Shown here one piece after another: positions 10,973 to 37,597 of a stretch of DNA of 64,000 nt. A program made the translations under genes and the position numbers. Numbering within the stretch: position 1 is the first letter of the stretch; every line of letters starts with the position of its first letter. The notes beneath the pieces are model-generated. The model was not told where the DNA came from. It worked only from the letters and a program-made list of their open reading frames with translations, and searched no databases. This DNA comes from an uncultured Planctomycetaceae bacterium. Lineage in GTDB: Bacteria; Planctomycetota; Planctomycetia; Isosphaerales; Isosphaeraceae. The stretch is from NCBI GenBank assembly GCA_963833985.1, contig CAWIAD010000002.1:1312001-1376000 (forward strand). Direction: 5' to 3'.

Positions 10973-11080
10973 AAAAAAAAACGGCGTGGTCCAACACCCT
11001 GAGGTATTCGACCACGCCGGCTTACTCGTCAACGGGCCCCCCGGCAAAGCCGGGTTGCCCCTCATCTAGTCGTCCGACGA
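10973..11080 (-). ncRNA. Riboswitch-like cis-regulatory RNA copy 1 with overlapping intrinsic terminator (resembles DUF1646 / Na+-I class)
   Basis: UCGGACGACUA..GGGCAACCCGGC-UUU-GCCGGGGGGCCC..GAGUAAGCCGG, then a CGGCGUGGUC/GACCACGCCG stem and U9; two homologous copies elsewhere in the window. Confidence 0.75.
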
Positions 11081-11269
11081 CCCCCGCTCATATTTTTATG
11101 GAAGTTGCTCGCTCATGCAAGCCTTCCATTCCAGAGTCATTGTCCTACCTCGAACCCAACGAAGCAAGCGCATTCTTGTAGTTTCTCACATGACAATCCT
11201 AAAATCAAGGGTCGCGAAAGAGATCTCTGCCTGGCCGCTCACCTGCTGTGCTGGTTCAGCTTGAATGGG

Positions 11270-11413
11270 AAGAACGACCGTGCTCGCCCAGCTAGCCAGA
11301 TCGGCCAGGAGCTGGGGATCAACAAGGAACGCGTTCGCCAGATCGAGGCGCACGCGGAGGCCAAGCTCCGTGAACTTGCCGGCCGCGAGGCACTCGGACC
11401 GCTGGAGATTTAA
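11270..11413 (+). pseudogene. Sigma-70 region 4 remnant
   Basis: QIGQELGINKERVRQIEAHAEAKLRELA matches the sigma70 region-4 HTH; no upstream regions 2-3. Confidence 0.7.
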
Positions 11414-11547
11414 GGAAAAGAAAAACCCCATGGCGATCTCCGCGCTCCGTTCGCAGAGCTCGGAAGACCACCGCCCGGCCGAACGATTCGAACGTACGCT
11501 CCTGATTCAAGTTTTGCATCCCGTCGGGCCGACATCCATTCGCCGGC

Positions 11548-11769
11548 TCACAAACCGGGGGTTGCCGGGACGGGTTCCTGCACCTTTCCACCGGGTTGAA
11601 CTGCTTCATCCATGGTCATCACGTAGGTCAAAATCCCCAGCAGCATCAGGCCCACGATGACCCAGAGACGCCAGTCCTTGTGAACCCGTCTCCACGCGGC
11701 GCGGTTTTCCCCTTCCGAGGGATTCGCATGGCGGTCCCTGTGATGCCACCCTTTTTGATGATCTCTCAT
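11548..11769 (-). CDS. Small single-TM hypothetical protein
   Basis: 73 aa with WRRVHKDWRLWVIVGLMLLGILTYVMT; last gene of the minus-strand cluster. Confidence 0.65.
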   Translation of the reverse strand: MRDHQKGWHHRDRHANPSEGENRAAWRRVHKDWRLWVIVGLMLLGILTYVMTMDEAVQPGGKVQEPVPATPGL

Positions 11770-11797
11770 TGATTCAAGCTCCAAGGAGGAAATTGAC

Positions 11798-12400
11798 TCA
11801 CGCGGCAGGATTTGCGTGGTGGTCATCGTTCCAGAGCAGGATGGCCGGGTCCTTCAGGGCATGCTCGTAGCCCAGGATACTCAGTGATGCAGTACTGAGC
11901 ACGAAGTGCCTGGCGTCCTCCGTGGTCAGACCAGTCCAGTGTGCGCCGAGGATTCGGAAGAACTGGCCGTGACCGAAAAGGAGGACGCGGCCTCCATCCA
12001 ACCGTAAGCGGGCGATCACACGGTCGGCACGGGCTCCCACGGCCGCGAGCGACTCACCACCCGGGCAGCCGTCCCGGAAGAGATACCAGCCTGGCCGCTC
12101 GCGGCGGACGTCGGCGGTGAGCCGGCCTTCATAATCGCCATAGTCCCATTCGATGAGGTCCGGAGCGATCTTGGCGACGGCCGCGAAGCCTGCCAGCTCG
12201 CAAGTCCGCCGCGCCCTCTGGAGCGGGCTGACCAGGACCTCGCTGAACGTGATCCCCTCGAGCCGTGCTCGCAGCTTTCTCGCGTTGTCCTCGCCACGCT
12301 CGGTCAAGGGGATATCGGTCCTTCCCGTGTGCCGGCCCTCCAGCGACCACGCCGTCTCGCCGTGGCGAGCCAGGTAAACCTCGGGTAGCGATTCGTCCAT
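11798..12400 (-). CDS. Histidine phosphatase (phosphoglycerate mutase) family protein
   Basis: RHGET motif, SPLQRA, EWDYGDYEG, LFGHG. Confidence 0.9.
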   Translation of the reverse strand: MDESLPEVYLARHGETAWSLEGRHTGRTDIPLTERGEDNARKLRARLEGITFSEVLVSPLQRARRTCELAGFAAVAKIAPDLIEWDYGDYEGRLTADVRRERPGWYLFRDGCPGGESLAAVGARADRVIARLRLDGGRVLLFGHGQFFRILGAHWTGLTTEDARHFVLSTASLSILGYEHALKDPAILLWNDDHHANPAA

Positions 12401-12466
12401 GGCGTGTTCCTTGATTCGGCCGTTCGGATGGTATCGGTCGCAGATCGGGAATGCGGGCGCGGGCGA

Positions 12467-13570
12467 TCACTTCGTCGCCGGAGCTGTATATTGCAATTGA
12501 TCCAGTGGATTGCCAACCGGAGAACCGGCGGTAGGTGGGCATTGTTTTGCAGTCATTTCCATCGCGGCATTGTATTCGCCGCGGCGTGCCGCCCGGTTGC
12601 ACCTGGCTCGATGATAAAGAGCTTGCTGTGCCGCCAAAACGTTGCCTTCTTTGCCTCGCCAGATCTCCAAGGCCGGTTGCTGGAGCGCGCGGCCGAATGA
12701 AAATGACAGCGCCCAAGGCCGTCGCGACTTGAATCGAACATTCATGGCATTCAATCGGGCCGAGGCCTGTTCGCCCGGTTGGCCGCCCGACAAGAACGCA
12801 ATCCCCGGAACGGCAGCGGGGACGGTTCGCAAAAGACAGTTCACCGTGGCGTCGGCCACCTCGTCCACCGTTTGTTGCCTGGAACAGGTCAATCCGGGAA
12901 GCACCATGTTGGGCTTCAGAATCACTCCCTCCAGCGCCACCCGCTGTGTATAGAGCTGGTCGAAGACGTTCCGCAGCACTTCCTCCGTGACAGCGCGGCA
13001 CCGCTCCAGGGTATGCTCGCCGTCCATGAGCACTTCCGGCTCGACGACGGGGACCAGTCCGGCTTCCTGGCACAATGCGGCATAGCGAGCCAGCGCCTGT
13101 GCATTGGCCTCCATGCAGCCTCGACTGGGAATGCCAGTGTCCAAGGCGATCACCGCTCGCCACTTGGCAAAGCGCGCACCCATTTGAGAATACTCTTTGA
13201 GGCGCGCTCGCAATCCGTCCAGACCTTCGGTGATTCTTTCTCCGGGATGACCGGCCAGGACCTTGGCACCGGTGTCAACCTTGATGCCGGGAATGATTCC
13301 CGCATCGACGATGACTTTGACGAAGGGAGTGCCATCCTTCTTCTTCTGGCGGATCGTCTCGTCATAGAGGATTGCACCACTGATGAACTCACCGAGGCTG
13401 CGCGTGGTAACAATCAGCTCTCGATAGGCTCGGCGGGCCTCCTCTGTCTGGGGAATACCCAACCTGGCAAATCGTTTGTCGCAGGTGGGAACACTCTCAT
13501 CCATCGCCAGCAGTCCCTTGTCGTCAGCGATCAGGGTGTTCGCGGTATCTATCAACTCTTGCGCGTTCAT
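12467..13570 (-). CDS. Fructose-bisphosphate aldolase, class I
   Basis: [43 protein letters not shown]. Confidence 0.93.
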
Positions 13571-16026
13571 TTAGGGGTGCTCCACTTCCAGTCTTGGATC
13601 TCGGGCATGTCCACGCCGTGCTTGTCGATGTACCGCTTGTGCTCGATCAGCTTGTCTTGAAGCTGTTGCTTGAGATAGGTCCCCTTGGTACCCGTCTGGG
13701 GAAGGCGATCGATCGTGTCCATTACCAGGTGGAAGCGATCCATGTCATTCATGACCGTCATGTCGAAGGCGGTCGTGATCGTGCCCTCTTCCTTGTAGCC
13801 TCGGACGTGCAGATTGCGATTGGCCCTGCGGTACGTCAGCCGGTGGATCAGCCAGGGGTATCCGTGGAAGGCAAAGATGATGTGTTTGTCCTTCGTGAAC
13901 AGCGAATCATAATCCAGGTCGCTCATCCCGTGCGGACCCTCGGTGTCGGGTTCCAGCTTCATGAGATCGACGACATTGACCACCCGGATCTTGAGATCGG
14001 GAAGGTGTTCACGAAGAATGGAAACGGCGGCCAGCGTCTCCAGTGTGGGGACGTCGCCGCAACAGGCCATCACCACGTCCGGCTCACCGCCCTGATCGTT
14101 ACTGGCCCATTGCCAGATGCCGATCCCCTCCGTGCAATGCGCGACGGCGGCATCCGTGGTCAGCCACTGGGGGGCATCGTGCTTGCCGCAGACCATGACA
14201 TTGATGTAGTTCAGGCTGCGCAGACAATGATCCATGGTCGACAGCAGACAGTTGGCGTCGGGTGGCAGGTAGACGCGCACCATCTCGGATTTCTTGTTGA
14301 CGACGTGGTCGATGAAGCCGGGATCCTGGTGCGTGAAGCCGTTGTGATCCTGCCGCCAGACGTGGGAAGTCAGCAGGTAGTTCAGTGAAGCGATATCCCT
14401 CCGCCACGGCAGTTCCGCACACATCTTCAGCCACTTGGCGTGCTGGGTGAACATCGAATCGACGATACGGATGAACGCCTCGTAACTATTGAAAAGCCCG
14501 TGCCGCCCTGTCAGCAGGTACCCCTCCAGCCAGCCCTCGCATTGATGCTCGCTGAGCATCTCCATGACGTCTCCGCTGGTCTCGAGGAACTCATCGTTCT
14601 CCTCGGTCGCAGCTTCCCACTGCCGATTGGTAACCTCAAAGACGGCCTCGAGCCGATTGGAGATTGTCTCGTCAGGACCGAACACGCGGAAGTTGCGCGG
14701 ATGCTCGTTCAGCTTGATGACGTCCCGCAAGAATGGGCCCAGCACATGCACATTGCCGGCCACGACGGCGGTAGGCGCTGGGACTTTGACGGCGTAGTTA
14801 CGGAAGTCAGGCATGCGGAGTTCGCGCAGAAGTTTTCCACCGTTGGCATGGGGATTGGCGCCCATTCGTCGGTCGCCCTTTGGCGCCAGGTCGGCCAGCT
14901 CGGACAGGAGCCGACCTTGCTTGTCGAAGAGTTCCTCCGGCTTGTAGCTGCGTAACCAGCTCTCGAGCTGCTGGAGATGCTCGGGAGGAGTCGTTGAAGA
15001 CACGGAGAGCGGCACCTGGTGCGCTCGGAACGTACCCTCGACCGGCAGCCCATCGATGATTTTCGGTCCGGTCCAGCCTTTGAGCGATCTGAGCACGATC
15101 ATCGGCCAGCGCGGGCGTGTGGCGTCGCCCTGGGTGCGGGCTTCGTGCTGGATCTTCTGGATTTGCTCCACCACCTTATCGAGGGTTGCGGCCATGGTCT
15201 GGTGCATCTCGGCCGGTTCTTCTCCCTCGACGAAGAAAGGCGTCCAACCGTAGCCGCGGAACAACTGGTCAAGTTCCTCGTGGGTGATGCGCGCGAGCAC
15301 CGTCGGGTTGGAGATCTTATAGCCATTGAGGTGCAAGATCGGCAGCACCACGCCGTCGCTGACCGGGTCGAGGAATTTGTTGGAATGCCATGCGGTGGCC
15401 AGTGGGCCGGTCTCAGCCTCGCCGTCGCCGACGATACAAGCGACGATCAGCTCGGGATTGTCAAACGCGGCCCCGAAGGCATGGCTGATCGAATACCCCA
15501 GCTCGCCTCCCTCATGAATCGAACCCGGTGTTTGGGGCGAAACGTGACTGGAGATGCCTCCGGGAAAGGAGAACTGCTGGAACAGTTTCTGAAGCCCGGC
15601 CTCATCCTGGCTGACGTTGGGATAGACCTCGCTGTAGGTGCCCTCGAGGTAGACGTTGCCAACGACCGCCGGAGCGCCGTGCCCGGGGCCGGAAATGTAG
15701 ATCATGTTGAGGTCATGCTCCTTGATGACCCGGTTCAGATGGGCGTAGATGAAGTTCTGTCCGGGAGTCGTGCCCCAGTGTCCCAGCAGCAGTTGCTTCA
15801 CGTGCTTCAGCTTCAGCGGCTCCCGCAGCAAAGGGTTTCCGCAGAGGTAGATCTGGGCGACCGACAGGTAATTCGCGGCCCGCCAGTAGGCATGGATCTT
15901 GCGAAGCTGTTCCAGGTCGAGGGGACCTTTCTTGTCCGGCGACTGCGACGCCCGAATCGTCGGGGGCGGGGCAGTGCGGAGTCTTCTCCGCTCGGGTTGG
16001 CTCTGCTTGACCGTGAATTTCGACAT
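13567..16026 (-). CDS. xfp: Xylulose-5-P / fructose-6-P phosphoketolase
   Basis: [44 protein letters not shown]. Confidence 0.95.
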
Positions 16027-16077
16027 CGTCTGGCTCCTTGATCACTTCTCGTTGGTGTGAATTCTTGATGGTAAAAA

Positions 16078-17340
16078 TCATGATGGCCGGGCCGTGAGAC
16101 AAGCCGCGGCCCTGGCAATCATCAGCTCTTCGTCTGTGCGGATGACCCGAACCTTGACCGGACCCTGGTCGGTCGAGATCAGCAGATCGCTCGATGCGTT
16201 GCGGCCTTCGTCCAGGGAGATTCCGAGGAATTCCAGGCCAGTGCAGATCCGGCGGCGGATCTCGGGTGCGTTCTCACCGATCCCCGCGGAGAATACGAGT
16301 GTGTCCAGCCCGCCGAGCGCGGCGGCAAACGCGCCGATCCACTTTCTCGCCTGGTAGCAGAACAGTTCGATCGCCTCGGCCGCGCGGACATCGCCTTTCT
16401 CCCGTTTCAGGAGATCGCGCACGTCGGAGCTGGTTTCCGAGACGCCCAGCAAGCCGGACTTGTGGTTCACGAGGCTGTCGAACTGGACGGCCGTCATTCC
16501 TTCGACCCGCGCGAGGAACCGGACCAGCCCCGGATCGATGTCACCTGTGCGCGTACCCATGACCAATCCGGATGCCGGTGTGAAGCCCATGGTCGTGTCG
16601 ACAGATTGGCCACCGCGGACTGCCGCGAGGCTCGCCCCGGCGCCAAGGTGTGCCAGGATGATACGGCCCTGGGCTTCTTCTGGGCCGACGAGTCGGGCCA
16701 GCTCCTCCATCAGATAGGCGTACGAAAGGCCGTGGAAGCCATACCGCCGCACCCCGGCAGCCTCGAACCGCCGCGGGATCGGCAAAATCTGGGCGACGCG
16801 GGGCATGTCGTGATGAAATGCGGTGTCGAAGCACACCACCTGGGGTAAGTCTGGATCATGGTTTCGGAACGCCTCGATCAGTTCGATCTCGCCCGGCATG
16901 TGATCAGGGTCGTACGAGCGAATCTTCCGCAATTCGTCGATCAGATTGGCCGTGACCCGCTCGGGCTGATGGTAGCGACTCCCTCCATCAACGACGCGAT
17001 GACCGACCCCGGCGATCTCCGCGAACCCGACTTCGCGCTGGAGCCAATCGATCAGCAGGTGGACGGCGGCCTTCTGGTCCGGGGCATCGATCGGCCGATC
17101 CTCCTTGCGACCGCCTCCGCCCTGGGTCATGACCCATCGGGCATGCTCGAGCCCGATCCGGTCGACCCGTCCGGACAGGAGCCGCGCTGACGGATCGGTG
17201 CGATCGAAGAGCGCGAACTTGAGGCTCGATGATCCGCCGTTAATGGTCAGGATGGTCGAACGTCCCGGACTTCCGGACCCAGGAGTCTGGGAACCGAAAC
17301 CAGCATTGAGGTCATGAACGTGATGTTTTGATTGAGACAT
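16078..17340 (-). CDS. ackA: Acetate/propionate kinase
   Basis: INGGSSSLKF, GHRVV, FDTAFH, RYGFHGLSY, TMGFTP, GIGEN. Confidence 0.93.
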   Translation of the reverse strand: MSQSKHHVHDLNAGFGSQTPGSGSPGRSTILTINGGSSSLKFALFDRTDPSARLLSGRVDRIGLEHARWVMTQGGGGRKEDRPIDAPDQKAAVHLLIDWLQREVGFAEIAGVGHRVVDGGSRYHQPERVTANLIDELRKIRSYDPDHMPGEIELIEAFRNHDPDLPQVVCFDTAFHHDMPRVAQILPIPRRFEAAGVRRYGFHGLSYAYLMEELARLVGPEEAQGRIILAHLGAGASLAAVRGGQSVDTTMGFTPASGLVMGTRTGDIDPGLVRFLARVEGMTAVQFDSLVNHKSGLLGVSETSSDVRDLLKREKGDVRAAEAIELFCYQARKWIGAFAAALGGLDTLVFSAGIGENAPEIRRRICTGLEFLGISLDEGRNASSDLLISTDQGPVKVRVIRTDEELMIARAAACLTARPS

Positions 17341-17386
17341 AGCTGATTCTGCAAATAGTGACGAGATGAGGTCATAGCGATGCATA

Positions 17387-18283
17387 TCAACGAATGTTTT
17401 CCTTGGAAAGAGATTCGTAACCGGATAGAACGTCGAATAATTCCTCATCAATGGAAGTCTGGCGCAAGCGTCGGAATGTCTGATTCAGGGTTCCCAGAAG
17501 GTCGTCGATGTTTTTCTCGGCTCGCTGCATGGCGGCCAGGCGGCTCGCGTTTTCTGCGGCCAAAGATTCGGCGCAGGCCCTGTAAATAGAGACGAAAAGA
17601 TACTCCCGCACGAGCGTCTCCAGCGTCCGTTCGTGGTCCCCGATGACCTCGGGCAGGTTCCTGGTCGGCCAGGGAAGATGAGCCAGCCTGATTTGCCATT
17701 TTTCATCCAGGGGGAGCAGGCGTTGACTGACAGGTTCGTAGGCCGCCCCGGCCTTGGGGCGATTGTGGAAGAGGAAGAGTTGACCAGAGTCTCCCTTGCG
17801 GTGATGTGCTTCACTTTCAACCAAAATCTGACCGACGAGTGGGGTGATGGCATTCACGGAAGTCGGAACGTTGAAAACGCCCGAGGGCGGGAGACCGGCA
17901 TCGGCCAGCCGCGCTCGAACGCGATCACCCACCGCCCAGACTCTCTTTGCGTCAGAAACAAGTTCGAGTTCCTTGGCGACAAAATCCGCCAGCAGATCAT
18001 TGAACTGGCCGACGAGTCCCTGGTCCGAGCCGAAGACGATGGCGCTAACCACCTTCGCGCCAGCGCCAGGCAGTTCGGCTTGCTCGATCGCGTTCGTCCT
18101 CAGACTCCTCAGGCATACGCCCAGCCCCAGTTCCACGGTGCGATCATAGTCCGCCAGGGCAAGCACCGAGTTCTCAAACTGTCCGATGCTGGCGGCTGCC
18201 AGGGCCTTCATCGAGCGGACAACGGATTCCAGGTCTCCCGCCCCGCCGATCTTGCGGCGCAGGCTTGCCAATGTATCGCTCAT
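17387..18283 (-). CDS. atpG: N-ATPase gamma subunit
   Basis: [43 protein letters not shown]. Confidence 0.93.
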
Positions 18284-19838
18284 GGCTTCTTCTCGGAGTT
18301 GGTAGCGGATTCTGGTTGAAAGGGCGCGATTGCTCTGGCGACAAGTTGCAGAATCGCTTTGCGGTCCTCGTCGCGCAACTTTTCATTCGAGGAAAACCGC
18401 TGGCGAATTTCTGTCGGCATGTCCGCGACCCCCTTTCTCAGCGATTGCTCGGCATCTCCCACCTTACTGATCGGCACACTGTCGAGGAGACCGCCGGTCA
18501 AGGCCATGAGGATGACGATCTGTTCGGGGACGGACGCTGGTTCGAGCTCCGGCTGTTTGAGGATGGCCCGGATTCGCTGGCCATGGTCGATGATCTTGCG
18601 GGTGTGTTCATCAAGCCGTGTGCCGAACTTGGCGAAGGACTCCAGTTCGGTGAACTGCGCATAAGCGAGCTTCAGATCGCCCGCCACGGCTCGGTAGGCC
18701 GCCCACTGTGCCTTGCCGCCAACGCGTGAGACGGACTTACCAACATCGACCGCGGGCAGTACGCCCAGATCGAATAAGGTCGGCGACAGGTAAATCTGGC
18801 CGTCCGTGATGGAGATGAGATTCGTCGGAATGTACGCAGAGATGTTTTGCGCCTCGGTCTCGATGATTGGCAAGGCGGTGAGCGAACCGCCCTTGAGATC
18901 GTCGCGAAGATGGGTGGCACGCTCCAGTAGCCGCGAGTGGATATAGAAGATATCGCCGGGAAACGCCTCGCGTCCTGGTGGACGGCGGAGCAGCAGCGAG
19001 ATCTCGCGATAAGCGCGGGCGTGCTGGGTCAAGTCATCGTAGACGATAAGTACGTTGCGGCCCGCTTCCATGAAGTGCTCCGCGATGCTGGTCGCGGCGT
19101 AGGGCGCGATGAAGGTGAGCCCGGGTGGGTCGTTGCCTTTGGTCACGACGACGACCGTGTAATCCAATGCGCCTTTTTGCGCAGGTTGGCGATAACCTTG
19201 GCTACGGCGGACGCACGCTGTCCGATCGCGCAATAGACGCACAGTACATTCTGGTCGCGCTGGTTCAGTATGGTGTCGATCGCGATGGCGGACTTGCCGG
19301 TTTGCCGGTCGCCAAGGATCAGCTCGCGCTGGCCGCGGCCAATCGGAATCAGCGCATCGATGACGATGATTCCGGTTTGCAGAGGCACCGAGACGAGAGC
19401 GCGGTCCATGATTGGCCTGGCGGGGCGCTCGATAGGCAAACGCTGGCTGGAGACAACCGGCCCCTTGCCATCGAGTGGTCCGCCGATCGGATCGATGACG
19501 CGGCCGATCAGTCCCTCGCCCACAGGTACGTCCATCACGCGACCCGTGCGCTCAACCTCATCACCTACGTGCAAGTGCTGATATTCGCCAAGGAGCACGA
19601 CGCCGATCTCGTCCGAATCGACGTTGAAGGCGATGCCGAACAGATCGACGGGAAACCTCACGAGCTCATCAAATCCCACGCCCGGCAGGCCCGAGACTTT
19701 GGCAATGCCGGTGGAGACGCTCGTGATCGTGCCCACCTCGCGCGGCGTCAATCGCGGCGTGAACGCTTGCAGCGTCCGGTCGATACCCGCGAATGCCTGG
19801 TCGAAGACAGTATGTAAGCTATCAGTAGAGTTACTCAA
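18280..19838 (-). CDS. atpA: N-ATPase alpha subunit (frameshift near 19175)
   Basis: [17 protein letters not shown] in ORF 19143..19838; [20 protein letters not shown] and TDGQI in ORF 18280..19242. Confidence 0.92.
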
Positions 19839-20700
19839 TGGTCCGCCTTTGGGGCTGCGGCCACCAGTACAGGCCCGTTTCTGGGTTCTCGCTTCGATAC
19901 GAGTTTGACAGCGGCCTTCGGGTCGGGCTTGATTTCGGTCCTGGCATCCTGGTTCAGAAGTTCGCCCGCGCTCTTTTCCAGCGTCGAGAGATAATCCGCT
20001 ATGCTCCAGGCGATCTTGTGTCCATTGGTGGAGAGATCAATGCCGCAGACCAGCTCCGGCGCGGTCTCGAACTGGACTTCAGCCTCCGGGGCGAAGGTTT
20101 CCTTCACCGCACTCTCGATCGCACTTTTTTGTGCCGGTGGCAGATCGAACGTGCTATGCACACTTACTTGATGGTTTGAGGATTTGAAGGCGGTCGCCAT
20201 CTGTTCCCTGGGCGCTCCGGTCAACGCACGAATGCGGCAAACGAAGACGTCGCACATGCGATCCTCGAGGCTCGTGCCGGCCAGGTCCGTCAGCGTCTTG
20301 CGCGTGATGGCGAAGACCTGCTTCTGGGTCCAGCGGATGATCTCTTGATTCAGGTTAATCTGCTCGCTCTGCAACGCGCTCTGACGCTTGCGCGCAAGGC
20401 ATCAGCATCTTTTCGTGCTTCGTCGAGCAGCCGCGTACGTTCGGCTTTGGCCTCGTCCGTGGCCTTGTTCAAGAGTGCTGCCCGCTCCTCGTCAAAGACC
20501 GCATTCTTGTGCTGAAAGTCGTCGCGTTCCTTTTGCGCTTCGGCTTTCTTCGCCTCGGCGTGCGCGAGCTGAGTGGCGATCCCTTTCTCCCGTTCATCGA
20601 TCGCGTGGAGGATGGGTCTGTAAAGGAATCGCTTCAACAACCACACCAGGATGAGGAAGTTGATTGCCTGGGCGAGGACCGTGAACCAGTTGATGAGCAT
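19835..20700 (-). CDS. atpF: N-ATPase b subunit with delta-like extension (frameshift near 20390)
   Basis: MLINWFTVLAQAINFLILVWLLKRFLY; C-terminal ELVCGIDL..IAWSIADYL. Confidence 0.88.
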
Positions 20701-20703
20701 GGC

Positions 20704-20985
20704 TTACTTTCCTGTGGCTTTATCAATGACCTGGTGCCAGAACGGGTTGGCGAAGATCAAGATCATAGAGATCACGAGACAGTAGATGGCGATGGATTCG
20801 ATCATCGCCAAGCCCACGAACAAGGTTCGTGTGATGGTACTGGCGGCGTCGGGCTGTTGTGCGAGCGAGCTCAGGGCAGTCGAGACGGCCCGTCCTTCAC
20901 CCAGCGCGGGGGCGATACTCCCCAGTGCGATCGTGATCCCGGCAGTGATGATCGAGGCGATGGCGATAATGGTCATGCTGTCCAT
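20704..20985 (-). CDS. atpE: N-ATPase c subunit
   Basis: ALGEGRAV, AQQPD, LAMIESIAIY, ANPFW. Confidence 0.95.
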   Translation of the reverse strand: MDSMTIIAIASIITAGITIALGSIAPALGEGRAVSTALSSLAQQPDAASTITRTLFVGLAMIESIAIYCLVISMILIFANPFWHQVIDKATGK

Positions 20986-21015
20986 GGCTGTCCTTTCGTC
21001 GCTGATGGTCAAGGT

Positions 21016-22308: not shown

Positions 22309-22316
<8 letters not shown>
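21987..22316 (-). CDS. atpQ: N-ATPase AtpQ (AtpI/AtpZ-like)
   Basis: WFGLGMSGLVGWSV, GCVNAWRWV; operon position. Confidence 0.85.
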
Positions 22317-24527
<2,211 letters not shown>

Positions 24528-24531
<4 letters not shown>

Positions 24532-25925
24532 CCGGTCACCTCCTCGGGCTTGGGGTTATGCCAGTAGCCGTTTGGTGCGATGAGGAGATCAGCCTCTTTC
24601 GGCCCCCAGGTGCCGCGCTGGTAGGGGAGGGTCGCGTGGTGAGACCTGAGTACCGGCTCGACCACTGACCAGGCGGCCTCGACCGCGTCCTCACGCGTGA
24701 AGAGAGCGCCATCGCCGGCCATGGCGTCGCTCAAGAGCCGCTCGTAGGGCGATTCCGCTCCCGGCTGCTCCTCGACCAGATAGAGCTCTCGCTGGTCGCC
24801 GACGAAATCCTTGCCTGCGCGTTTGACCCGAGCGGCGAGAGCGATGGCGGAATTGGGCGAGAGCTGGAATCGTAGGTAGTTGGCCGGGCCGCTCGGCGGC
24901 GCTGAGTCGGCGAAGAGCTTCTGTGGTGGCGGCTTGAGCTCTACCAGTACCTGGGTCGCCGTTTCAGGCAGGTATTTGCCGGAGCGCAGGTACCACGGCA
25001 CACCCTCCCAGCGCCATGAGTCGATGAAAAGCCGCAAGGCGCAGAAAGTCTCGACGTCGGAGCTCTCCGCAACGTTCGGCTCCTCACGGTAGCCATCGTA
25101 CTGGCCGCGGATCAAGTCGTCGGGCGTCAAGGCGCGCGTGGCTTGAAAAACCTTGGCTTTCTCGCCGTGCACGGCTCCAAAGTCCCTGACGGCCGGCGGC
25201 TCCATGGCAAGCAGAGCAACGATCTGGAAAAGATGGTTCTGGATCACATCGCGCAGACAGCCGGCAGTTTCGTAAAACGAGCCGCGGACCCCAACGCCAA
25301 AATCCTCCGATAGGGTTACCTGCACGTTGGCCACGTAGTTGCGGTTCCAGATCGGTTCCAGAAACGAATTGGCGAAACGGAAATAGAGGATGTTCATGAT
25401 CGCCTCCTTGCCAAGGAAGTGGTCGATCCGGAAGATCGAGTCTTCCGGGAACACCGACCTCGCGACGCGGTTAAGCTCACGCGCCGAGGCCAGGTCGCGG
25501 CCGAAAGGCTTTTCGACGATGACGCGCCCCTGATTGGCGAGCTCTGCGGCGCCGAGACCTGTGATCACGGTCTGGAACAACGAGGGTGGGATCGCGAGGT
25601 AATGAGCCGGGCGCTGGGCGCGACCCAGCCCCTGCTTGATCTTCGTGAACGTGTCCCGGTCGTTGTAGTCACCGCTCACGTAAGTGAGTAGGGACAGCAG
25701 ATGCTGGAAGGCATGCTGGTCATCGATCCCGCCCGATCGCGTTATACTGTCCTGTACGCGGTCGCGCAACTGCGCAAGACTCCATTTCGGGGAGGCGACG
25801 CCGATGACCGGGACATTCAGCGCGTCGCGTTTCACCATTGCATAAAGCGCCGGGAAGATCATCTTGTGGGCGAGATCGCCCGTAACACCGAAGAGCACCA
25901 ACGCGTCCGAAAGAGAGGCGCTCAT
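24528..25925 (-). CDS. zwf: Glucose-6-phosphate 1-dehydrogenase
   Basis: [28 protein letters not shown]. Confidence 0.95.
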
Positions 25926-26029
25926 CAGGCACCTTCCTTCTTGGCGGCGGCTTGTCCCTCGTGTCTGAAAACTCGTACCGCAGGGCGGACAGCCTTGAAA
26001 CCGAGCTGACTTCCGAATCGATCCTTCAT
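25925..26029 (-). pseudogene. gnd: 6-phosphogluconate dehydrogenase stub (start fused to the last ~25 codons)
   Basis: [10 protein letters not shown], then with frame changes [20 protein letters not shown]; ends overlap the rpiB stop and zwf start. Confidence 0.6.
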
Positions 26030-26484
26030 GTCTCAACCTCCTGATTCACCAGCGCCTGCACTTTCGCCATCCGGCGTTTGTGGCGTGGGGCGCCGCTGAA
26101 GCGAGCGGCCAGAAAGGTCTCGATCACTTCCCAGGCGAGAGCAGACCCGATCACTTTTCCACCCAGACAGAAGACATTCATGTCGTCATCTTCAACTCCC
26201 TGATGGGCCGAGAAGACGTCATGGATGAGCCCGGCACGAACCCCTGGAACCTTGTTCGAGGCGATGGACGCCCCCACTCCGCTGCCGCAGAGCGCCACTC
26301 CGCGTTCAACCTCCCCCGCGGCGATAGCTCTGGCCAGGGGGATGATGAAATCGGGGTAGTCGTCTCCTGACGTCAGTTGGTGTGCGCCGAAGTCCACGAC
26401 CTCGTGGCCCGACCCTCGCAGCGAGTCCGTCACCTCCCCTTTCAACGTAAACCCTCCATGGTCCGCAGCGATTCGTATGCGCAT
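26026..26484 (-). CDS. rpiB: Ribose-5-phosphate isomerase B
   Basis: [23 protein letters not shown]. Confidence 0.93.
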
Positions 26485-26489
26485 CGTGC

Positions 26490-28529
26490 TTACTCCTTGA
26501 CATGACGGACCAGGTCATGGGTTTGCTTGCAAATATTATCTATCGTGAAGCCATAGTGCTTCATCACGACCGGCCCGGGGGCCGATGCCCCGAAGGTGTC
26601 GACGCCGATCACGGCGATCTGGGGACCGACATAGGATCTCCAGCCGAGGGAAACGCCGGCCTCGATTGCCAGCAGTGGCACACCCGGTGTCAGGACCTCA
26701 TTGCGATACCGATCTGACTGCATAGAGAAGATGTCTGTACTCGGCAAACTCACCACTCTTGCCTGTACTCTCTCAGTCGCCAGCCGATCACGGGCCTCCA
26801 GCGCCAGATGCACCTCGGAACCGGTTGCGATCAGAATAATGTCCGGTCGTGCACCAGACGGAGAGTCCGTGAGTACGTAGCCGCCACGCGGCACTCCAGA
26901 GGGTACGCCCGGATAGCAAGACGGATCGAGCACGGGGAGTCCCTGCCGAGTCAGCACCAGGGCAACGGGACCTTCCCTTCGCTCGATGGCGATCCGCCAG
27001 GCGGCAACCGTCTCATTGGCATCCGCCGGGCGGATGACAGTCATGCCGGGGATCGATCGCAGTCCCACCAGTTGTTCGACAGGCTGATGGGTCGGACCGT
27101 CCTCTCCCATGGCGATGCTATCGTGGGTGAAGACATAGATCACCGGCAGGCCGTTCATGGCCGCCAGGCGCATCGGAGGTCGCATGTAGTCGCTGAAGAT
27201 CAGGAACGTTCCTCCGAAGGGGATGAGGCCACGGTGCAACGCCAAGCCGTTCAAGATGGCACCCATAGAGTGTTCCCGGATGCCAAAGTGCATGATGCGT
27301 CCCGCCAGGTTCTCCGGCTCGAAGTTCCCGGCCCCGTCCATGTTTGTGTGAGTACTGGGAGCAAGATCGGCCGAGCCTCCTATCAACTCGGGCAGGCGAG
27401 AGCCCAGTACGGTGATAGTCTTTCCCGAAGCGATACGCGTCGCCATCGGGCCATCCGCCGCGGTGAAAACCGGGAGGTTGTTGTCCCAATCCTCGGGAAG
27501 CTGCCGGTGTATGACCCGCTCGAATTCCGCTGCCAGGTCAGGGTATTCTTCCGCAAAGGCGTCGAGACGCAACTCCCACTCCGCCTGCGCGGTACCTCCC
27601 CGGGTGATGGCTTCCCGGAAATGCTCCAGAGCCTCCTCCGGAATATGGAACGGTGGTTCCACCGGCCAGCCCAGCCCTTCTTTGGTCAGACGCACCTCCT
27701 CCAAACCGAGCGGCTCCCCGTGGGCAGCCGCGGTGTCCTGCTTGTGGGGGCTGCCGAAGCCGATGTGGGTGCGAACGAGGATCAAGGAAGGCCGGCCGGT
27801 CTCTTCCCGGGCAGCATCGAGCGCGGCGACGACCGCGTCGATGTCATTGCTCTGTTCGATTCGCTGGACGTGCCAGCCGAACGCTGCGAAACGGGCCATC
27901 CGGTCTTCGGTAAATGCCAGCTCCGTGCTACCTTCGATCGTGATGTGGTTGTCTGCATAGAGGACGACGAGCTTCCCCAGCCGCAGATGACCGGCCTCGG
28001 ATCCGGCCTCGGAAGAGATCCCTTCCTCCAGGTCCCCATCGCTGGCCAGGACATAGGTGTAATGGTCCACGACGGTGTGACCAGGCCGATTGAAGCGCGC
28101 TGCGAGAGCGACCTCGGCGATCGCCATACCGACGGAGTTGGCCAGACCCTGTCCCAAGGGACCGGTGGTTGCCTCAACGCCGGGGGTCTTCCCGTATTCC
28201 GGATGGCCTGGGGTACGGCTTCCCCACTGGCGGAACTTCTCGAGCTCCTCAAATGGCAGGTCGAAGCCCGTGACATGAAGCAGCGCGTACAAGAGAGCAC
28301 ACCCATGTCCGGCCGAAAGCACAAATCGATCCCGGTCGGGCCAGAAGGGATCACGCGGGTTGAACTTCAAAAAGCGATCCCAGAGCGCGTAGGCCATGGC
28401 CGCCGAACCCAGGGGCAGACCAGGGTGCCCTGACCTGGCCTTCTGCACGGCGTCCACGGCCAGGAAGCGCAGAGTGTTGACGCAGAGTTTGTCCAGTTCG
28501 GGTGGAGCGTTTGTGGCTAAGAGTGTCAT
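26490..28529 (-). CDS. tkt: Transketolase
   Basis: [44 protein letters not shown]. Confidence 0.96.
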
Positions 28530-29716
28530 GTTGGCGTTGAACCTCTTCTGATCGTGAGCGGGATTTCGCGACGCTTTTTTGTCTCGGGCTGACCGTCGAT
28601 CCGAAGTGAGCCCGTGGCTCGGGACACGTCGGCGCGGGCCCCTGTCGGCAGGAATTCCGGCACGTCAAGACGCGCCACGCCGATCCGGTTGTCGGCCATC
28701 CCGTAATAGATGTCGAAACGATCGGGCAAGCCGAGATCATCGCGCCGGTCGATGGCAGTGGGAAAGACGACGTTGGCGACCGTTCCGATACGTTCCTGTG
28801 GTAATTCCGGCGTCAATATTGGCTCCGGTGAACGATAGCGGATCACCCGCGGATGCTGCTCGGAGAGCACCAGCACGCCGGCGGAGTAGCATAACTTGTG
28901 CGCTGCCGTGTTCGAGACTGCCAGTTCGTGGACGCCATGGTAGATGACCATCCATCCGTGTCGCGTCAGCACCGGAGGAGTGCCGCCACCAATTTTGAGC
29001 GATTCCCAGCCCACCACCGGGCTGGCGAACCGGTTATGCAAGGTGAAGTGGCAGAGGTGATAGGGCTCATCGCCAGGATCACCCAGTGGACAGTAGGAAA
29101 TCCAAATGCTCTCTCGATGGAGATCCACGACGCGGGACGCCGGTTGGCAGACTGTTTCCTCAGGGCGAGTCCCGGGAAAGAGAGGTCTGTGGAGGAGGGC
29201 CATTGCCGGTTGCCCGTCAGGATCGGGAATGGCGACGGGGAAGATGCTGGCATCCTTATTATCCACACCGTCGAACTCGATGCCTTCATAAGGGCGGAAG
29301 GTCGCCAGCCCCAGACGTTGCCAGTGGAAAAGGTCTTCCGAGAGGGCAAGGGCAATCCGCGGACCTTTGGGTGAAAGTGCTGTGTAAGTCATCACGTAAC
29401 GCTTGAGGTCTTGACCGTAACTTATCCGTGCATCCTCACATCCTCCGCTGCCGTCAGGCCGCAGCTCGTAATCCGTTTCTGGCTCCAGTGCGATGCCGAG
29501 CCGTTCGACTCCCTCCGGGTCGCCGGCCTCATTGAATTTCACTCGGGCAATACCGATGCGCGAGAAATTTCCCTTTCCGACCAGGCGCGGGAAGAGGTAG
29601 TACTGACCGTCAGGGCCGCGCACCCCGGCGGGGTTCAAGACCCCTTCGACCTCCAGCGGATTACCCGGCTCGGGCTCCATCAGCATCCCCAGCCGCTTCA
29701 TTTGAAATCCTGCCAT
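28526..29716 (-). CDS. GH130-family glycosidase / mannoside phosphorylase
   Basis: GVLNP, GCEDARI, NKDA, LLHRP, KIGGG, NVVFP. Confidence 0.85.
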
Positions 29717-29748
29717 CGCCTCTCCTCAAGACGTCATACGTAATCAGC

Positions 29749-30492
29749 TTAGATTAAACATGCGATGATTGCTTCGATAACCCGTTTGGTCTCATGTGGT
29801 TCTTTGACCCGGATCGACAAGACGCCAGCTTCCTCGGCCGGATAGTCGTTGCCGCCAGGAAACAAGGCATCTCCGATGAAGATCATCTCTTCAATGGCTA
29901 TGCCCAGCATGTCCCTTAGCTTTCTAATCCCGTAGGCCTTGTCGATGCCGGGCTTCGTGACGTCAATGGACGTCGCGCCACCGAGTCGGACAGAAAACTC
30001 CGGAATCAAGGTGTCAAGGATGGCTTTCATCTTCTTTCGCTTGTTGAAATCCGGGTCCCATTTCACCTTTTCTTGCAGAGGAGCTTCTTGACCCAATGCG
30101 GAAAAGGTGATCTGACTACCCCTGTCTTGAATCAACTCTCCCCAGACTTTTTCGGGCTTCAGGCCCGATTGCTCGATTGCCTGCTTCAGTGAACTGATAA
30201 TCCTATCTTTCTGTTCACTCGTGAAATCTTCCGCGTAAAGTTTTTTCCAACCTGTTTCGTACTTGTAGAACTGTGTTCCACATGTAGGGAGGAGCGAAAG
30301 GTTCTTCAGGCGTTCGTCACAGGTAAGATGAGAGAGCACTTGTTTTTGAAACTGCGGCCAGTTGCCGCCGGAGATCACAGCGACCTTGATCACGCCAAAC
30401 AGTTTATTGAGAAGGGTCGCCATCTCGGGATCCAGCGACGACTTGCTCTGGGCCAGTGTTCCATCGAGGTCGAATACAACGAGCTTTTTCAT
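29749..30492 (-). CDS. HAD-IIB hydrolase, phosphomannomutase-like
   Basis: FDLDGTL, ISGG, DRGSQITFS, GGATSIDV, FIGDALFPGGND. Confidence 0.85.
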   Translation of the reverse strand: MKKLVVFDLDGTLAQSKSSLDPEMATLLNKLFGVIKVAVISGGNWPQFQKQVLSHLTCDERLKNLSLLPTCGTQFYKYETGWKKLYAEDFTSEQKDRIISSLKQAIEQSGLKPEKVWGELIQDRGSQITFSALGQEAPLQEKVKWDPDFNKRKKMKAILDTLIPEFSVRLGGATSIDVTKPGIDKAYGIRKLRDMLGIAIEEMIFIGDALFPGGNDYPAEEAGVLSIRVKEPHETKRVIEAIIACLI

Positions 30493-30548
30493 TTTACGGT
30501 TTCTGTGTTCTTGACCCTGTTCACCATCCCGATCCTTTCCGGCTGGAA

Positions 30549-31539
30549 CTATCCAGGCAGAGCGACCTCCAGCATGGTGACTGGAGTTTGTGGATGGTAA
30601 GTACATGCGCCGACCTCCGCCGGCAAGAGCACGACGTCGCCCTGGCCGATGGGATAATTGGTGCCGCTGTACTCCAGCTCTCCTTCGCCGGCGATGCACA
30701 CCAGCACTCGAGGTGTGGCAGTCGCACCGACGCCGAATGGCGATTGTCCGGTGGTACGCCACACCGAGAAATGTGCACAATGAAAGAGGCGCTCACGCCT
30801 CACCGGCGCATCCTCGAGCACCACCGGTGCCACCGGACCGATTGCGACTTGTCTGAAATCGAGGCAGGCAACCGCCTGCTCGACTTGCAGGGGTCGGGGC
30901 TTACCAGTCTTGGGGTCGAGCCGATCCCAATCGTAAAGGCGATACGTGACGTCGCTGTTTTCCTGGACCTCGAACACGACAAGGCCGCTGAGGGAGTGAG
31001 CGGTCCCGGCCCGGAGGAAGACGGCGTCGCCGACCCTCGGCCTGAAGCTTGCCAGAAGCTCAGCCACCGTCCTGTTAGCGAGAGGCTCGCTTCAGATCGT
31101 CTTGAGTGGTCCCTGGCCTCAGACCCGCGTAGATGCGGCTCGCTGGCCCCGCGTCCAGCACGACCCACGCTTCGGACTTGCCGGTTTCGCCCGCCGGGAT
31201 ATAGTCCTTCTGCCCATCCTCCGGATGTACCTGGACCGAGAGCTTTTCGTGAGCGTCGAGGAACTTGAGGAGCACAGGGAACCGTCGGAAACGGCCCGCC
31301 AGTTTACCCAGCAGTTGGTCGGGCGACTGCTCCACCAACTGCTGGATGGTCGACCCTTTGAGCGGACCGGCAGCGACCCTGCTGGGATGGTCATCGCGGT
31401 CGCTCAGTAGCCAGGCTTCGCCGATAGGTCCGTCGCCGGGAAGTGGTTCCCTGAGCAACTCGGCCAGGCGCCGGCCACCCCAGAGTCGATACTGGAAGAT
31501 CGGTTCGAATCGCAGCGGGTACATTGGAAGGTTGATCAT
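30549..31539 (-). CDS. manA: Type I mannose-6-phosphate isomerase (frameshift near 31080)
   Basis: WGGRRL, IGEAW, KFLDA..LSVQVHP, KSEAW; second frame GTAHS and EVQENSDVTYRLYDW. Confidence 0.88.
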
Positions 31540-31604
31540 GTCGTGTCTCTTGTTGTACCGGGCGGAGCATCTGCGGGCGCATTTTCTAAGCGATGCCCGT
31601 GGGG

Positions 31605-32441
31605 TCAGGGGCCATGCTTCTTCGCTGAGTGATATTCCTTGCGAATATGCTCGATATCTACCGTAGGCGGGGGGAGCGTCATCTTCAGCCCTTCCAGGTG
31701 CTCAATGACGATCCGGGCCACGGCGAGGTTCCTGAACCATTTGTGGTCAGAGGGGATAATGAACCAGGGGGCGTGATCGGTGCTGCAACGGGAGAGTGCA
31801 TCCTCGTAAGCCGCCGTGTACTCGTCCCAGGAGGTTCGCTCCTTGTGATCTGCCTCACTGATCTTCCATTGTTTGGAAGGATCGTCGAGCCGATCCTTGA
31901 AGCGCTTCAGTTGCTCTCCTTTGGAGATGTGTAGGAAGAATTTGAGGATATGGGTATCATCCTCGACGAGCCCACTTTCGAAGGCATTGATTCGATCGTA
32001 CCTTCGGGACCAGGTCTCCTTCGGGACCAGGTCATGAACTCGGGCGATCAACACGTCCTCGTAATGAGAGCGGTTGAAGATGGCCACTTCACCACGGGCA
32101 GGCGCGGCACGATGGATCCGCCAGAGGAAATCGTGCCCAAGCTCGAGCGCGCTCGGTTGCTTGAACGACACGACTTTGCAGCCTTGTGGGTTCATCGCAC
32201 CCAGGATGTGACCGATCGTGCCATCCTTACCCCCTGCGTCGAGCGCTTGGAGACAGATCAGGAGTGATCGCCGTCCATTGGCATAAAGCAACTCTTGCAG
32301 TTCTCTCAGCCTTTGCAAGTCGTGCTCAATCTCCTTGGCGGCCTCCTTGTGGTCCTCGTGATGGTTCTTCAACTTCGGGTCGATATCCTTCAGGCTGACC
32401 GTGGTGCGGGGCGGCACTCGGAAGCGTTCCACATAGCTCAC
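31605..32441 (-). CDS. ppk2: Polyphosphate kinase 2 family (polyP:nucleotide phosphotransferase)
   Basis: ALDAGGKDG, FKQPS, HDFLWR, FNRSHYEDV, KWFRN. Confidence 0.92.
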   Translation of the reverse strand: MSYVERFRVPPRTTVSLKDIDPKLKNHHEDHKEAAKEIEHDLQRLRELQELLYANGRRSLLICLQALDAGGKDGTIGHILGAMNPQGCKVVSFKQPSALELGHDFLWRIHRAAPARGEVAIFNRSHYEDVLIARVHDLVPKETWSRRYDRINAFESGLVEDDTHILKFFLHISKGEQLKRFKDRLDDPSKQWKISEADHKERTSWDEYTAAYEDALSRCSTDHAPWFIIPSDHKWFRNLAVARIVIEHLEGLKMTLPPPTVDIEHIRKEYHSAKKHGP

Positions 32442-32533
32442 TTCGCTCCTCCTGCCGGCGGTTGCCGAAGGATTTTTTGTCCAAGGTTCCGGACGTGGGT
32501 CGTCCAGAACCTTCTGTCGCGCATCTGGTGGAG

Positions 32534-33085
32534 TTACACGCCCACGGTGGCCAGCCGATCCCCGTGGACCGTCGTTGCATCCGCCTCACTTTGATGCAGT
32601 AGGTCCTTGGCATGCTCAACCTCTTCGGAGGTTCCGTGAGCAACGAGAAGGAGTTTGCCGTTCTTCACCTCAGTTTCGTATTGCAGGACGCTGTTCTTCG
32701 GAATGCCGATGCTGACCAGTGCGGCGCCCAAGGCGCTGAGTCCACCCATGACCGCGGCGCTCTCGAGCGCTCCGACGATCCAGACCACCAGCGGTCCCGC
32801 AACGAGCACCGTCCCGATGCCAGGCAACCAGAAGAACGCGGAGCCGAACAGTAATCCCCAGAAACCGCCCCAGAAGGCCCCCAGCTTTCCCCAGTACTTC
32901 ATGCGGTCGCCGGTGTTGTAATAGCCGACGACGTTCTCCTCTGTGTGGTAATCCTTGCCGATGATCGACAGCTTCTTCATGTCGAAGCCACTCTTGTGAA
33001 GTTCGCGGATCGCGTCTTCGGCGCGCTCATGAGATTCGAAGATTGCGACAACGGAGTTTTTGTCTGACATCATCTGGTTCCTCAT
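32534..33085 (-). CDS. General-stress / DUF1269-like membrane protein
   Basis: VVAIF..H..AE.AI.EL..SGF, GAFWGGFWGLLFG glycine-rich helices, YETEVKNGK. Confidence 0.8.
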   Translation of the reverse strand: MRNQMMSDKNSVVAIFESHERAEDAIRELHKSGFDMKKLSIIGKDYHTEENVVGYYNTGDRMKYWGKLGAFWGGFWGLLFGSAFFWLPGIGTVLVAGPLVVWIVGALESAAVMGGLSALGAALVSIGIPKNSVLQYETEVKNGKLLLVAHGTSEEVEHAKDLLHQSEADATTVHGDRLATVGV

Positions 33086-33211
33086 TGGTGAGTACTGGTG
33101 GAACTGGCAAAAGCTGACGTGCGAAAAGGTGAACTGCGCGTCACGGCTGTATTACGCTAATGCGTCGGATTGGTCGTGAAGTTCTTGCGGCCTAGAGACC
33201 GGAGCGCGAGC

Positions 33212-33321
33212 AAAAAAGAAGCCGGCGTGGTCAAGAACCCTGAGGTCCCAGGCCACGCCGGCTTACTCTTCGACGGACCGCCCGGAATACCCGGGCTGCC
33301 CTTCGTTTAGTCATCCGACTA
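33212..33321 (-). ncRNA. Riboswitch-like RNA copy 2 with terminator, heading the ~22 kb cluster
   Basis: UCGGAUGACUA..GGGCAGCCCGG..CCGGGCGGUCC..GAGUAAGCCGGCGUGG...CCACGCCGGCUUCUUUUUU. Confidence 0.75.
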
Positions 33322-33484
33322 CTTCAGATCGTTTCCCAGAGCCGACGAGATAGTTCCACGTCGAGTCTCAAAGAACACTCGTCATGGTATGCGCGGCGAC
33401 AAGGGAAAAGCAAATGAATTCGTGCTAAGGTCGGAATTCTTCATACCAGATCAATCTGAGAAGGGTGACAGCGGTTCAGACGTT

Positions 33485-33919
33485 CTACTTCCTCTTCGCC
33501 TCGCGGACCTGTGGCGTTTCGGCCAGTGTGAAGCGCACGCGCTCCTCGCCGGTGAGCGTGCTGATATCGTGGTGCATGCTCACAACCTTGATGCCGGTGA
33601 CTTCTTCGACCAGGGCTTCCATGAGAGGTCGCGCAGTTTCGAGAAGATGTGTACGTACTTGTTTGAGCAGATCTCTCCCCTTTTCGGCCGGCAGCGACTT
33701 GACCAGGTGCTGTTCCGCTGCGGTCAAGACGCCTTGGAGGCGGACGATGAGCAAGTCGCCGATCAAGTGAGTGCGGATATCCTTGGGCCCCCGGCCCATG
33801 TTTTCCTGCTCAAAACGACCCATCCCTGCACAAATGGTGGCTTCGATTTCCCCTTGTGTTCTCAAGACCGTTCCATCAACCGTCCGATAGCTGAGGACTC
33901 GGGTTCTCGCAGAGAGCAT
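33485..33919 (-). CDS. DUF2294 / MpsC-like protein
   Basis: TQGEIEA, MGRGPKDI, LQGVLTAAEQHL, SMHHDIST.TGE; start uncertain. Confidence 0.85.
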   Translation of the reverse strand: MLSARTRVLSYRTVDGTVLRTQGEIEATICAGMGRFEQENMGRGPKDIRTHLIGDLLIVRLQGVLTAAEQHLVKSLPAEKGRDLLKQVRTHLLETARPLMEALVEEVTGIKVVSMHHDISTLTGEERVRFTLAETPQVREAKRK

Positions 33920-34073
33920 CCCAGCCCGAATCGTCCAGGCGCCGGCTAACCGGCAAGTATTATTTGTAAAGAAGACAATATCCTTGCAATGGGCGCGAAG
34001 GATGAGATAATAATGGAATCTTGGGAAGCTTGTCCAAGCATGTGGGCAAATCCCGTGACAATCTGAGTTGGGA

Positions 34074-34183
34074 TCGTCGGATAACTACATAAAGGGCAAC
34101 TCGCCTTTGCGGGGGGCTCGTTAGCGAGTAAGCCGGCGCGGCGGATACCTTGGGGTAGTCCGCCGCGCCGGCTTCTTTTATTT
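34074..34183 (+). ncRNA. Riboswitch-like RNA copy 3 with terminator
   Basis: UCGGAUAACUA..GGGCAACUCGC..GCGGGGGGCUC..GAGUAAGCCGGCGCGGCGG...CCGCCGCGCCGGCUUCUUUU. Confidence 0.72.
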
Positions 34184-37595: not shown

Positions 37596-37597
37596 CG

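Follow-up and report, generated by a model that had tools for sequence, protein, structure and literature searches.

The 64,000-nucleotide stretch analyzed here (the window; positions 1,312,001 to 1,376,000 of contig CAWIAD010000002.1, assembly GCA_963833985.1, from an uncultured Planctomycetaceae bacterium) carries three copies of a leader RNA, in which an interrupted hairpin, the core, overlaps an intrinsic terminator, and a gene of the DUF2294/MpsC/YbcI family lies between the second and third copies. We show that this RNA and DUF2294 travel as a cassette in a fixed geometry. Sequence comparison supports the leader as a conserved, covarying cis-regulatory RNA with the layout of a transcriptional ON switch and a regulon of multiple operons. 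The leader is probably the binding site of the basic-residue type of DUF2294 (DUF2294-A), which would act as an antiterminator that permits read-through.

The pattern GTCGGAYRACTA..GGGCARC..GAGTAAGCCGG, with which the copies were first described, matches the window exactly three times (11017-11078 and 33258-33319 on the reverse strand, 34076-34136 on the forward strand) and has no match in 100 shuffles of it. Folded in isolation, the core of each copy forms one interrupted hairpin (z of -3.2, -4.2, and -2.2 for copies 1 to 3, respectively). The full leaders prefer a long terminator that absorbs the 3' AAGCCG strand and has the U-tract at its end (z of -5.5 to -5.9), and forcing the bottom stem of the core costs 4.5, 11.8, and 10.4 kcal/mol, respectively. 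Both arrangements in which DUF2294-A accompanies the leader occur in the window, since copy 2 starts 163 nucleotides (nt) past the stop codon of the DUF2294 gene on the same strand and copy 3 is divergent from it. The genome (10.16 Mb in 2 contigs, 96% complete) has 10 leader copies, 3 of them in the window, 6 inside 21 kb of contig C1, and 1 at 3.6156 Mb of contig C2. The block formed by copy 2, DUF2294, and copy 3 has a paralog on C1 with 81% identity, and the five best tblastn matches of DUF2294 in the genome each lie approximately 300 nt or less from a leader copy. The lone copy on C2 (G000:C2:3615595-3615701) is situated in a low-G+C (57%) stretch with a HicB-like gene nearby and no clear open reading frame (ORF) downstream.

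When GTDB genome contigs were scanned with the pattern, at least 133 matching stretches were obtained, with approximately 370 estimated, and nearly all of them belong to Planctomycetota. The family counts given here cover the matches listed, and the fold statistics were computed without L041, a chance match that has no terminator, and L109. A U-tract is present in 129 of the 131 matches with enough 3' sequence, and the GCCG strand is paired within the terminator in 127 of those 129. In an alignment of 104 sequences, changes on both sides of the pair occur at 11 of 21 core pairs and at 15 of 20 terminator pairs; none of 500 shuffles and no slid control reached the observed covariation of core or terminator pairs. 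Of 24 sequences taken from different subtypes, 14 have C-G and 6 have U-A as the middle P2 pair. The core is a single long hairpin (approximately 65 nt, and approximately 50 nt in the clostridial form described below) whose internal loops, GG-AYG-ACU ... AGU-AAG-CC, are conserved. The apical loop shows no conservation and has no pseudoknot partner, and the apical stem is missing in the clostridial form. The terminator is favored over the core in 130 of 131 leaders (mean of 10.3 ± 2.8 kcal/mol) and, because it wins by approximately 10 kcal/mol, the default of the leader should be to stop transcription. Upstream of 78 of 133 leaders there is a sigma70-like promoter pattern, which mostly ends 45 to 80 nt before the core; mononucleotide shuffles give 16 ± 4. 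A co-oriented ORF lies downstream in 73 of 76 matches. The first downstream genes encode DUF2294, DUF3309, CsbD, DUF1328, YflT, transglycosylase-associated protein, Hsp20, SPFH, KaiC-like, and HPr proteins, kinases, and glycosyltransferases, a set typical of general-stress genes. DUF2294 is the largest neighbor class: among 134 distinct matches it is the best ORF on the downstream side 29 times and the divergent ORF on the upstream side 27 times, in a tally of automatic ORF picks of which some are partial. Much of the original prediction is borne out by these data: the three copies share a real motif, their 3' strand is shared with the terminator in an ON layout, their inner stems vary while pairing is kept, and their neighbors are those that it named (SPFH and RND genes, the sugar/N-ATPase cluster, a truncated gene, and DUF2294 between copies 2 and 3). 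Comparison of homologues and a survey of downstream genes, which it had proposed, showed a covarying family, mostly stress-gene targets, and a linkage to DUF2294, a gene that it had noticed while missing the tie to the RNA.

Two types of DUF2294 protein accompany the leader. In type A, the residues R26, R43, K69, R72, and R80 are kept in 73 to 80 of 80 sequences, and type B lacks them. PF10057, the Pfam family of DUF2294, is present in 14 of 151 genomes of the phylum. A covariance-type scan (R1) of 150 phylum genomes, which applied strict filters and scored 51 candidates per genome, gave strong matches in 3 of 13 DUF2294-positive genomes (G003, G077, and G105) versus 0 of 137 negative ones, and the lone match among the latter was weak (E 6.8e-4). 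Among the 70 matches with at least 600 nt on each side, DUF2294 lies within 3 kb in 38; a type A gene stands upstream in divergent orientation in 17 and co-oriented in 2, and type B is the first gene downstream in 13 (plus 2 unclassified). Of 19 other Planctomycetota loci, 6 have a second form of the core, subtype II (GG-CAG-AUY ... RAU-ARG-CC followed by a terminator), behind DUF2294, as does Anoxybacillus; the background of this regular-expression (regex) search was 0 of 400 and 1 of 264. The core-only model R2 did not detect this subtype. At L212, L225, and L227, terminator-like leaders that lack a recognized core were seen at most 250 nt behind DUF2294, and these are possibly further subtypes.

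The same neighborhood recurs in Bacillota, where two of three plasmid records carry an R1 variant directly behind DUF2294, in Acetoanaerobium (E 1.3e-7) and in Anoxybacillus (E 3.5e-4). The Anoxybacillus variant precedes the gene of the sodium-dependent bicarbonate transporter SbtA, and DUF2294 is found beside inorganic-carbon transporters in this phylum. With the Acetoanaerobium protein as query we fetched 38 metagenome loci of this clostridial type, several of them near-duplicates. In 31 of the 33 that could be scored, the element lies behind DUF2294, usually approximately 15 nt or less from its stop codon (L197, L199, L205, and L206, which are partial matches, and L191, which is too short, were set aside). 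Because the element comes after this stop codon, DUF2294 is upstream of the switch and not governed by it, as is also the case for regulator genes of the licT/glcT type. The first genes at 34 clostridial-type loci encode major facilitator superfamily (MFS) transporters (12), PurK (11), phosphoenolpyruvate (PEP) carboxylase (4), PEP carboxykinase (2), and other or short products (5). Since the RNA adjoins DUF2294 in two distant bacterial groups, DUF2294 is the likely leader-binding factor. On a Staphylococcus pettenkoferi plasmid, a terminator-like hairpin with a U-tract was seen by eye just before the mpsA/ndhF-dabA-DUF2294 operon (L139:451-497), and no core was found upstream of it.

Judging by homologues, the DUF2294 protein of the window starts at a TTG codon at 33865, whereas in the ORF list the frame spans 33485-33919. 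Receiver-domain fusions make up 35 of 102 longer homologues, which gives DUF2294 the layout of an output domain; in P0276, P0318, P0352, and others it is joined to PAS, receiver, or whole hybrid-kinase domains. The AlphaFold model of DUF2294 (pLDDT 95) has a predicted alpha-beta-beta-alpha-alpha-beta-beta order. PDB sequence searches with DUF2294 gave nothing significant, and a search of the ESM Atlas returned PF10057 alone. Elsewhere in this genome, a type B paralog that lacks the conserved Arg and Lys residues lies directly behind a leader (L134:10229-10648, about 1415229-1415648 of C1), and a truncated A/B pair was seen at about 1410400-1411000 of C1.

In the mechanism that we propose, transcription would start at the promoter-like site that precedes each copy and by default end at the terminator of the leader. 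Active DUF2294-A would clamp the conserved internal loops during transcription, and the resulting read-through would open general-stress genes and, in this genome, also the pentose-phosphate/phosphoketolase/acetate-kinase/N-ATPase energy operon. With less support, the type B paralog, which stands behind a leader and has no basic residues at these positions, could be a feedback modulator. The best lead for the signal is inorganic carbon in Bacillota and phosphorylation in the receiver-domain fusions; inorganic carbon is suggested because the targets in Bacillota use bicarbonate, and planctomycete targets do not point there. Taken to its full extent, the proposal would make DUF2294/MpsC an undescribed class of antiterminator gated by inorganic carbon (CO2/bicarbonate) or receiver phosphorylation, with the basic-residue-free paralog as feedback and with a mobile planctomycete regulon, up to 27 operons in size, linking general-stress proteins with the phosphoketolase/acetate-kinase/N-ATPase module; in this complete form we put it forward tentatively and consider it rather doubtful.

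Several observations weigh against DUF2294-A as the antiterminator of this leader. The conservation of P1 and P2 in the 104-sequence alignment was preset by the search pattern and, because the pattern fixed them, the invariance of the bottom two stems is uninformative in that alignment. No R1 match was found in 10 of the 13 DUF2294-positive genomes, 13 of the 19 other Planctomycetota loci fail the subtype regex (though 3 of those show the core by eye), and scans with R1 and R2 revealed no core at the Staphylococcus plasmid locus. Foldseek gave no match for the DUF2294 model at E<=0.001. The best structural match was VIA (Z 6.5), and the KH-type proteins RbfA (Z 5.6, rmsd 3.9, 88 aligned residues) and KhpB (Z 4.5) had scores tied with unrelated rows; because the model has no clear structural relative, RNA binding is without support from the fold. 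Besides, no DUF2294 residue tracks the RNA subtype beyond phylogeny, and deletion of mpsC in Staphylococcus aureus is described as having no growth effect in the available text of PMC6689103. Finally, the targets differ by group, stress genes in one and bicarbonate enzymes in the other, which a model with a single signal does not yet explain.

A different reading of the cassette is that the leader is an undescribed small-molecule ON riboswitch that senses, for example, bicarbonate/CO2, pH, or a linked metabolite, DUF2294 being a mere companion in the regulon. The internal-loop nucleotides are indeed very highly conserved across two phyla, aptamer and terminator overlap, there are 5 to 27 copies per genome, and the clostridial-type targets form a coherent set, with SbtA joining them in Anoxybacillus. 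We nevertheless consider an orphan riboswitch unlikely, because DUF2294-A stands upstream or divergent in a fixed geometry, beyond control by the switch, no strong RNA match occurs in the 137 genomes without DUF2294, the core is an unbranched hairpin that lacks a conserved apical loop or pseudoknot partner, and DUF2294 is fused to receiver domains. Still less probable is that another protein binds the leader, such as CsrA via the GGA of a small alternative 5' hairpin, while DUF2294 acts in the same pathway without contacting the RNA. The terminated fold does show GGA in the loop of such a hairpin, and 62 of 132 leaders form this hairpin stably, compared with 39 ± 6 when the flanks are shuffled, but GGA is absent from subtype II, where the sequence is GGCAG, and DUF2294 is the invariant partner in the gene context. 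We give very little credence to the idea that the copies have no switching role and are just a small RNA, or a duplicated promoter-terminator cassette, that mobile islands have spread since, although they cluster in low-G+C, transposase-rich regions and include the duplicated block on C1, compensatory changes affect both mutually exclusive structures, a co-oriented ORF nearly always follows, and the element is conserved between Planctomycetota and Bacillota.

The leader heads a co-oriented run from yflT or zwf to the N-ATPase, xfp, and fba genes at 4 loci in 3 of 5 genomes, which were picked for sharing genes with the cluster in the window and have 5 to 27 leader matches each. Of the remaining two, G407 lacks AtpR despite its 24 leaders, and in the other AtpR lies on a separate contig. 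In an even sample of 150 phylum genomes AtpR is present in 14, just one of which has an R1 match, on another contig. Within flanks of up to 3 kb, an N-ATPase subunit was found at 1 of 79 leader loci; it lies farther downstream in some relatives. Because the link between leader and operon recurs in 3 of the 5 picked genomes, the N-ATPase operon is a real target, one of many. The earlier description of a regulon around the N-ATPase is supported as regards the multi-operon regulon and the recurrence of N-ATPase among relatives. The helix-1 Glu typical of N-ATPases is present in subunit c, but the motif reads ESIAIY instead of ESTxxY, i.e., without the Thr, which leaves the ion of this enzyme uncertain; according to the available text of PMC2881411, the helix-1 Glu may make up for an incomplete Na+ ligand motif.

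The leader had also been likened to the DUF1646 motif, the Na+-I riboswitch, and assigned to cation sensing. The Na+-I aptamer is described, in the available text of PMC9337991, as an ON switch built from two distinct stems, P1 and P2, the latter with conserved loop nucleotides, and as preceding mainly genes for cation transport. The leader is similar in that it too overlaps a terminator in an ON layout and can precede an ion-translocating ATPase. However, the RF03071 covariance model did not match the three copies at E<=10, and genome-wide it gave two sub-threshold matches away from the copies (best E 0.10), while one control genome passed the cut-off. A search of the window against Rfam returned tRNA alone at gathering level, and when the copies and the Acetoanaerobium variant were scanned by E-value, just sub-threshold, terminator-like matches appeared. 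The leader is one interrupted hairpin with an unconserved apical loop, whereas Na+-I has two hairpins, and its commonest first genes (DUF2294, DUF3309, CsbD, YflT, transglycosylase-associated protein, and kinases) are not cation transporters. Given the lack of an RF03071 match, the other architecture, and the other gene context, kinship with DUF1646 is not supported. Neither is cation sensing, since mostly stress genes lie downstream and N-ATPase and leader are mostly apart in the phylum sample. A Na+-I variant that turns on N-ATPase and efflux genes at high Na+ is scarcely credible, even though it would share the ON logic, a leader heads the N-ATPase operon here and at 4 loci in three other genomes, and the helix-1 Glu of subunit c would fit: cation transporters are not prominent among the targets, AtpR and R1 rarely share a genome, G407 has its 24 leaders without AtpR, and the ESIAIY motif makes the ion uncertain.

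By analogy, the DUF2294-leader pair would work like an RAT or ANTAR antiterminator system, yet it lacks the domains that define them. The antiterminators BglG, SacY, LicT, and GlcT consist of CAT RNA-binding and PRD domains and act on RAT hairpins, where their binding stabilizes the antiterminator. Like these, the leader is an unbranched hairpin with internal loops over an intrinsic terminator, with termination as the default and the regulator gene adjacent; unlike them, DUF2294 matches PF10057 alone, without CAT or PRD, and the RNA hairpin, with its length of approximately 65 nt (approximately 50 nt in the clostridial form), has no Rfam match and up to 27 target leaders per genome. ANTAR regulators (AmiR, NasR, EutV) bind twin hairpins via loop motifs with a helical domain. 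DUF2294 resembles them as a small output domain, alone or fused to a receiver, with terminator-containing leaders and a multi-operon regulon, but the linked proteins have no ANTAR Pfam match, the predicted model is alpha/beta, and the RNA has a single hairpin, whose loop is variable. MpsC of the S. aureus mpsABC system and YbcI belong to PF10057 too, yet the available text of PMC6689103 assigns MpsC no function and mentions no RNA partner. Rhodopirellula-1, like the leader, is a planctomycete candidate cis-regulatory hairpin missing from Rfam (available text of PMC2864571); it was rejected as a match because the alignment rows and consensus in the supplement differ and the core 10-mers are absent from the aligned motif columns. 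Neither the leader RNA nor an RNA-binding DUF2294 was found in Rfam 15 or in the literature searched, including the supplements of PMC6429828, the motif supplements of PMC5737381 and PMC11109978 being outside this comparison. If the proposal is right, the DUF2294/MpsC/YbcI family, which is present in Bacillus and Staphylococcus and has a misleading Pfam name (Na+ membrane-potential system), would acquire a function, and the few known transcription antiterminators would be joined by a new protein-RNA pair. In planctomycetes, a stress regulon would be named and the N-ATPase operon would gain a regulator. The set of targets at clostridial-type loci (purK, PEP carboxylase, SbtA, and PEP carboxykinase, which is accompanied by a gamma carbonic anhydrase-like gene) makes inorganic-carbon sensing by heterotrophs testable.

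The coordinates of the leader copies and of the genes around them are collected in Table 1.

Table 1. Leader copies, promoter candidates, and neighboring genes in the window.
Feature	Position	Strand	Remarks
RND permease in three ORF pieces and HlyD-type membrane fusion protein	4916..9831	-	co-oriented after SPFH
SPFH/Band 7 protein	9951..10841	-	first gene after copy 1
Leader copy 1	10974..11081	-	antiterminator core 11013-11078 and overlapping intrinsic terminator; 112 bits; ahead of SPFH
Co-oriented run after yflT	11798..32441	-	predicted single operon; gaps <=92 nt except 294 at pmi
N-ATPase atpDCQRBEFAG	17387-24217	-	TIGR03305/03306/03322
YflT-domain general-stress membrane protein	32534..33085	-	PF11181; first gene after copy 2
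Leader copy 2	33215..33322	-	core 33254-33319 and terminator; 107 bits; ahead of yflT and sugar/N-ATPase run
Sigma70-like promoter candidate, copy 2	33384..33413	-	regex match; end 66 nt ahead of core
DUF2294/MpsC/YbcI type A (basic-residue type)	33485..33865	-	PF10057, E 1.4e-34; candidate RNA-binding antiterminator; 126 residues
Sigma70-like promoter candidate, copy 3	33984..34011	+	9/12 consensus bases, consensus match alone; overlaps divergent DUF2294 promoter candidate
Sigma70-like promoter candidate, DUF2294	34007..34036	-	10/12 consensus bases, consensus match alone
Leader copy 3	34073..34178	+	core 34076-34140 and terminator; 94 bits; divergent from DUF2294
48-codon stub	34253..34399	+	after copy 3; 5' remnant of GAF-HisKA-HATPase-REC kinase

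The run behind yflT contains ppk2, pmi pieces, HAD and GH130 genes, tkt, rpiB, zwf, a tal fragment, the N-ATPase genes, ackA, xfp, fba, and a histidine phosphatase gene. Its N-ATPase is recognized by the gene order with AtpR and is second to an F-ATPase. Together with yflT (11798-33085 on the reverse strand), this pentose-phosphate/phosphoketolase/acetate kinase/PPK2/N-ATPase run may be an ATP-generating, membrane-energizing stress module. The genes atpF and atpA (about 20390 and 19173) are each split by a one-base indel relative to a homologue, which may be an assembly error. Other fragmented genes are the RND permease, in three pieces (6439-9831), tal (24214-24531), and pmi (30800-31539), and the fragmentation as a whole, atpF and atpA included, may be due to assembly error or decay. 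The stub behind copy 3 has a paralog on C1 (L134:13210-15162) that is the start of a GAF hybrid sensor kinase, and the stub is followed by an integrase/AAA transposon at 35426-37575.

The G+C content of the 2-50 kb region is 60.2% versus 64.9% for the genome, a value equally low in 4% of 20-kb windows. A tRNA gene (50305-50376, reverse strand) lies at the edge of this region, and transposase genes are found at 35426-40395 and 49059-50159; the tRNA edge is a likely integration site. The term island used in the original prediction is plausible because of the low G+C and because the region ends at a tRNA beside transposases, although a direct repeat of the tRNA end flanking the region was looked for and none was found. 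The region also contains, at 40527-46164 on the reverse strand, genes for an ECF sigma factor and a Ser/Thr kinase with a STAND-like ATPase and WD40 repeats, in two ORFs. At 3005-4793, a transglutaminase-like gene is divergent from a proteasome-subunit-type gene, and another transglutaminase-like gene is present in the leader cluster on C1.

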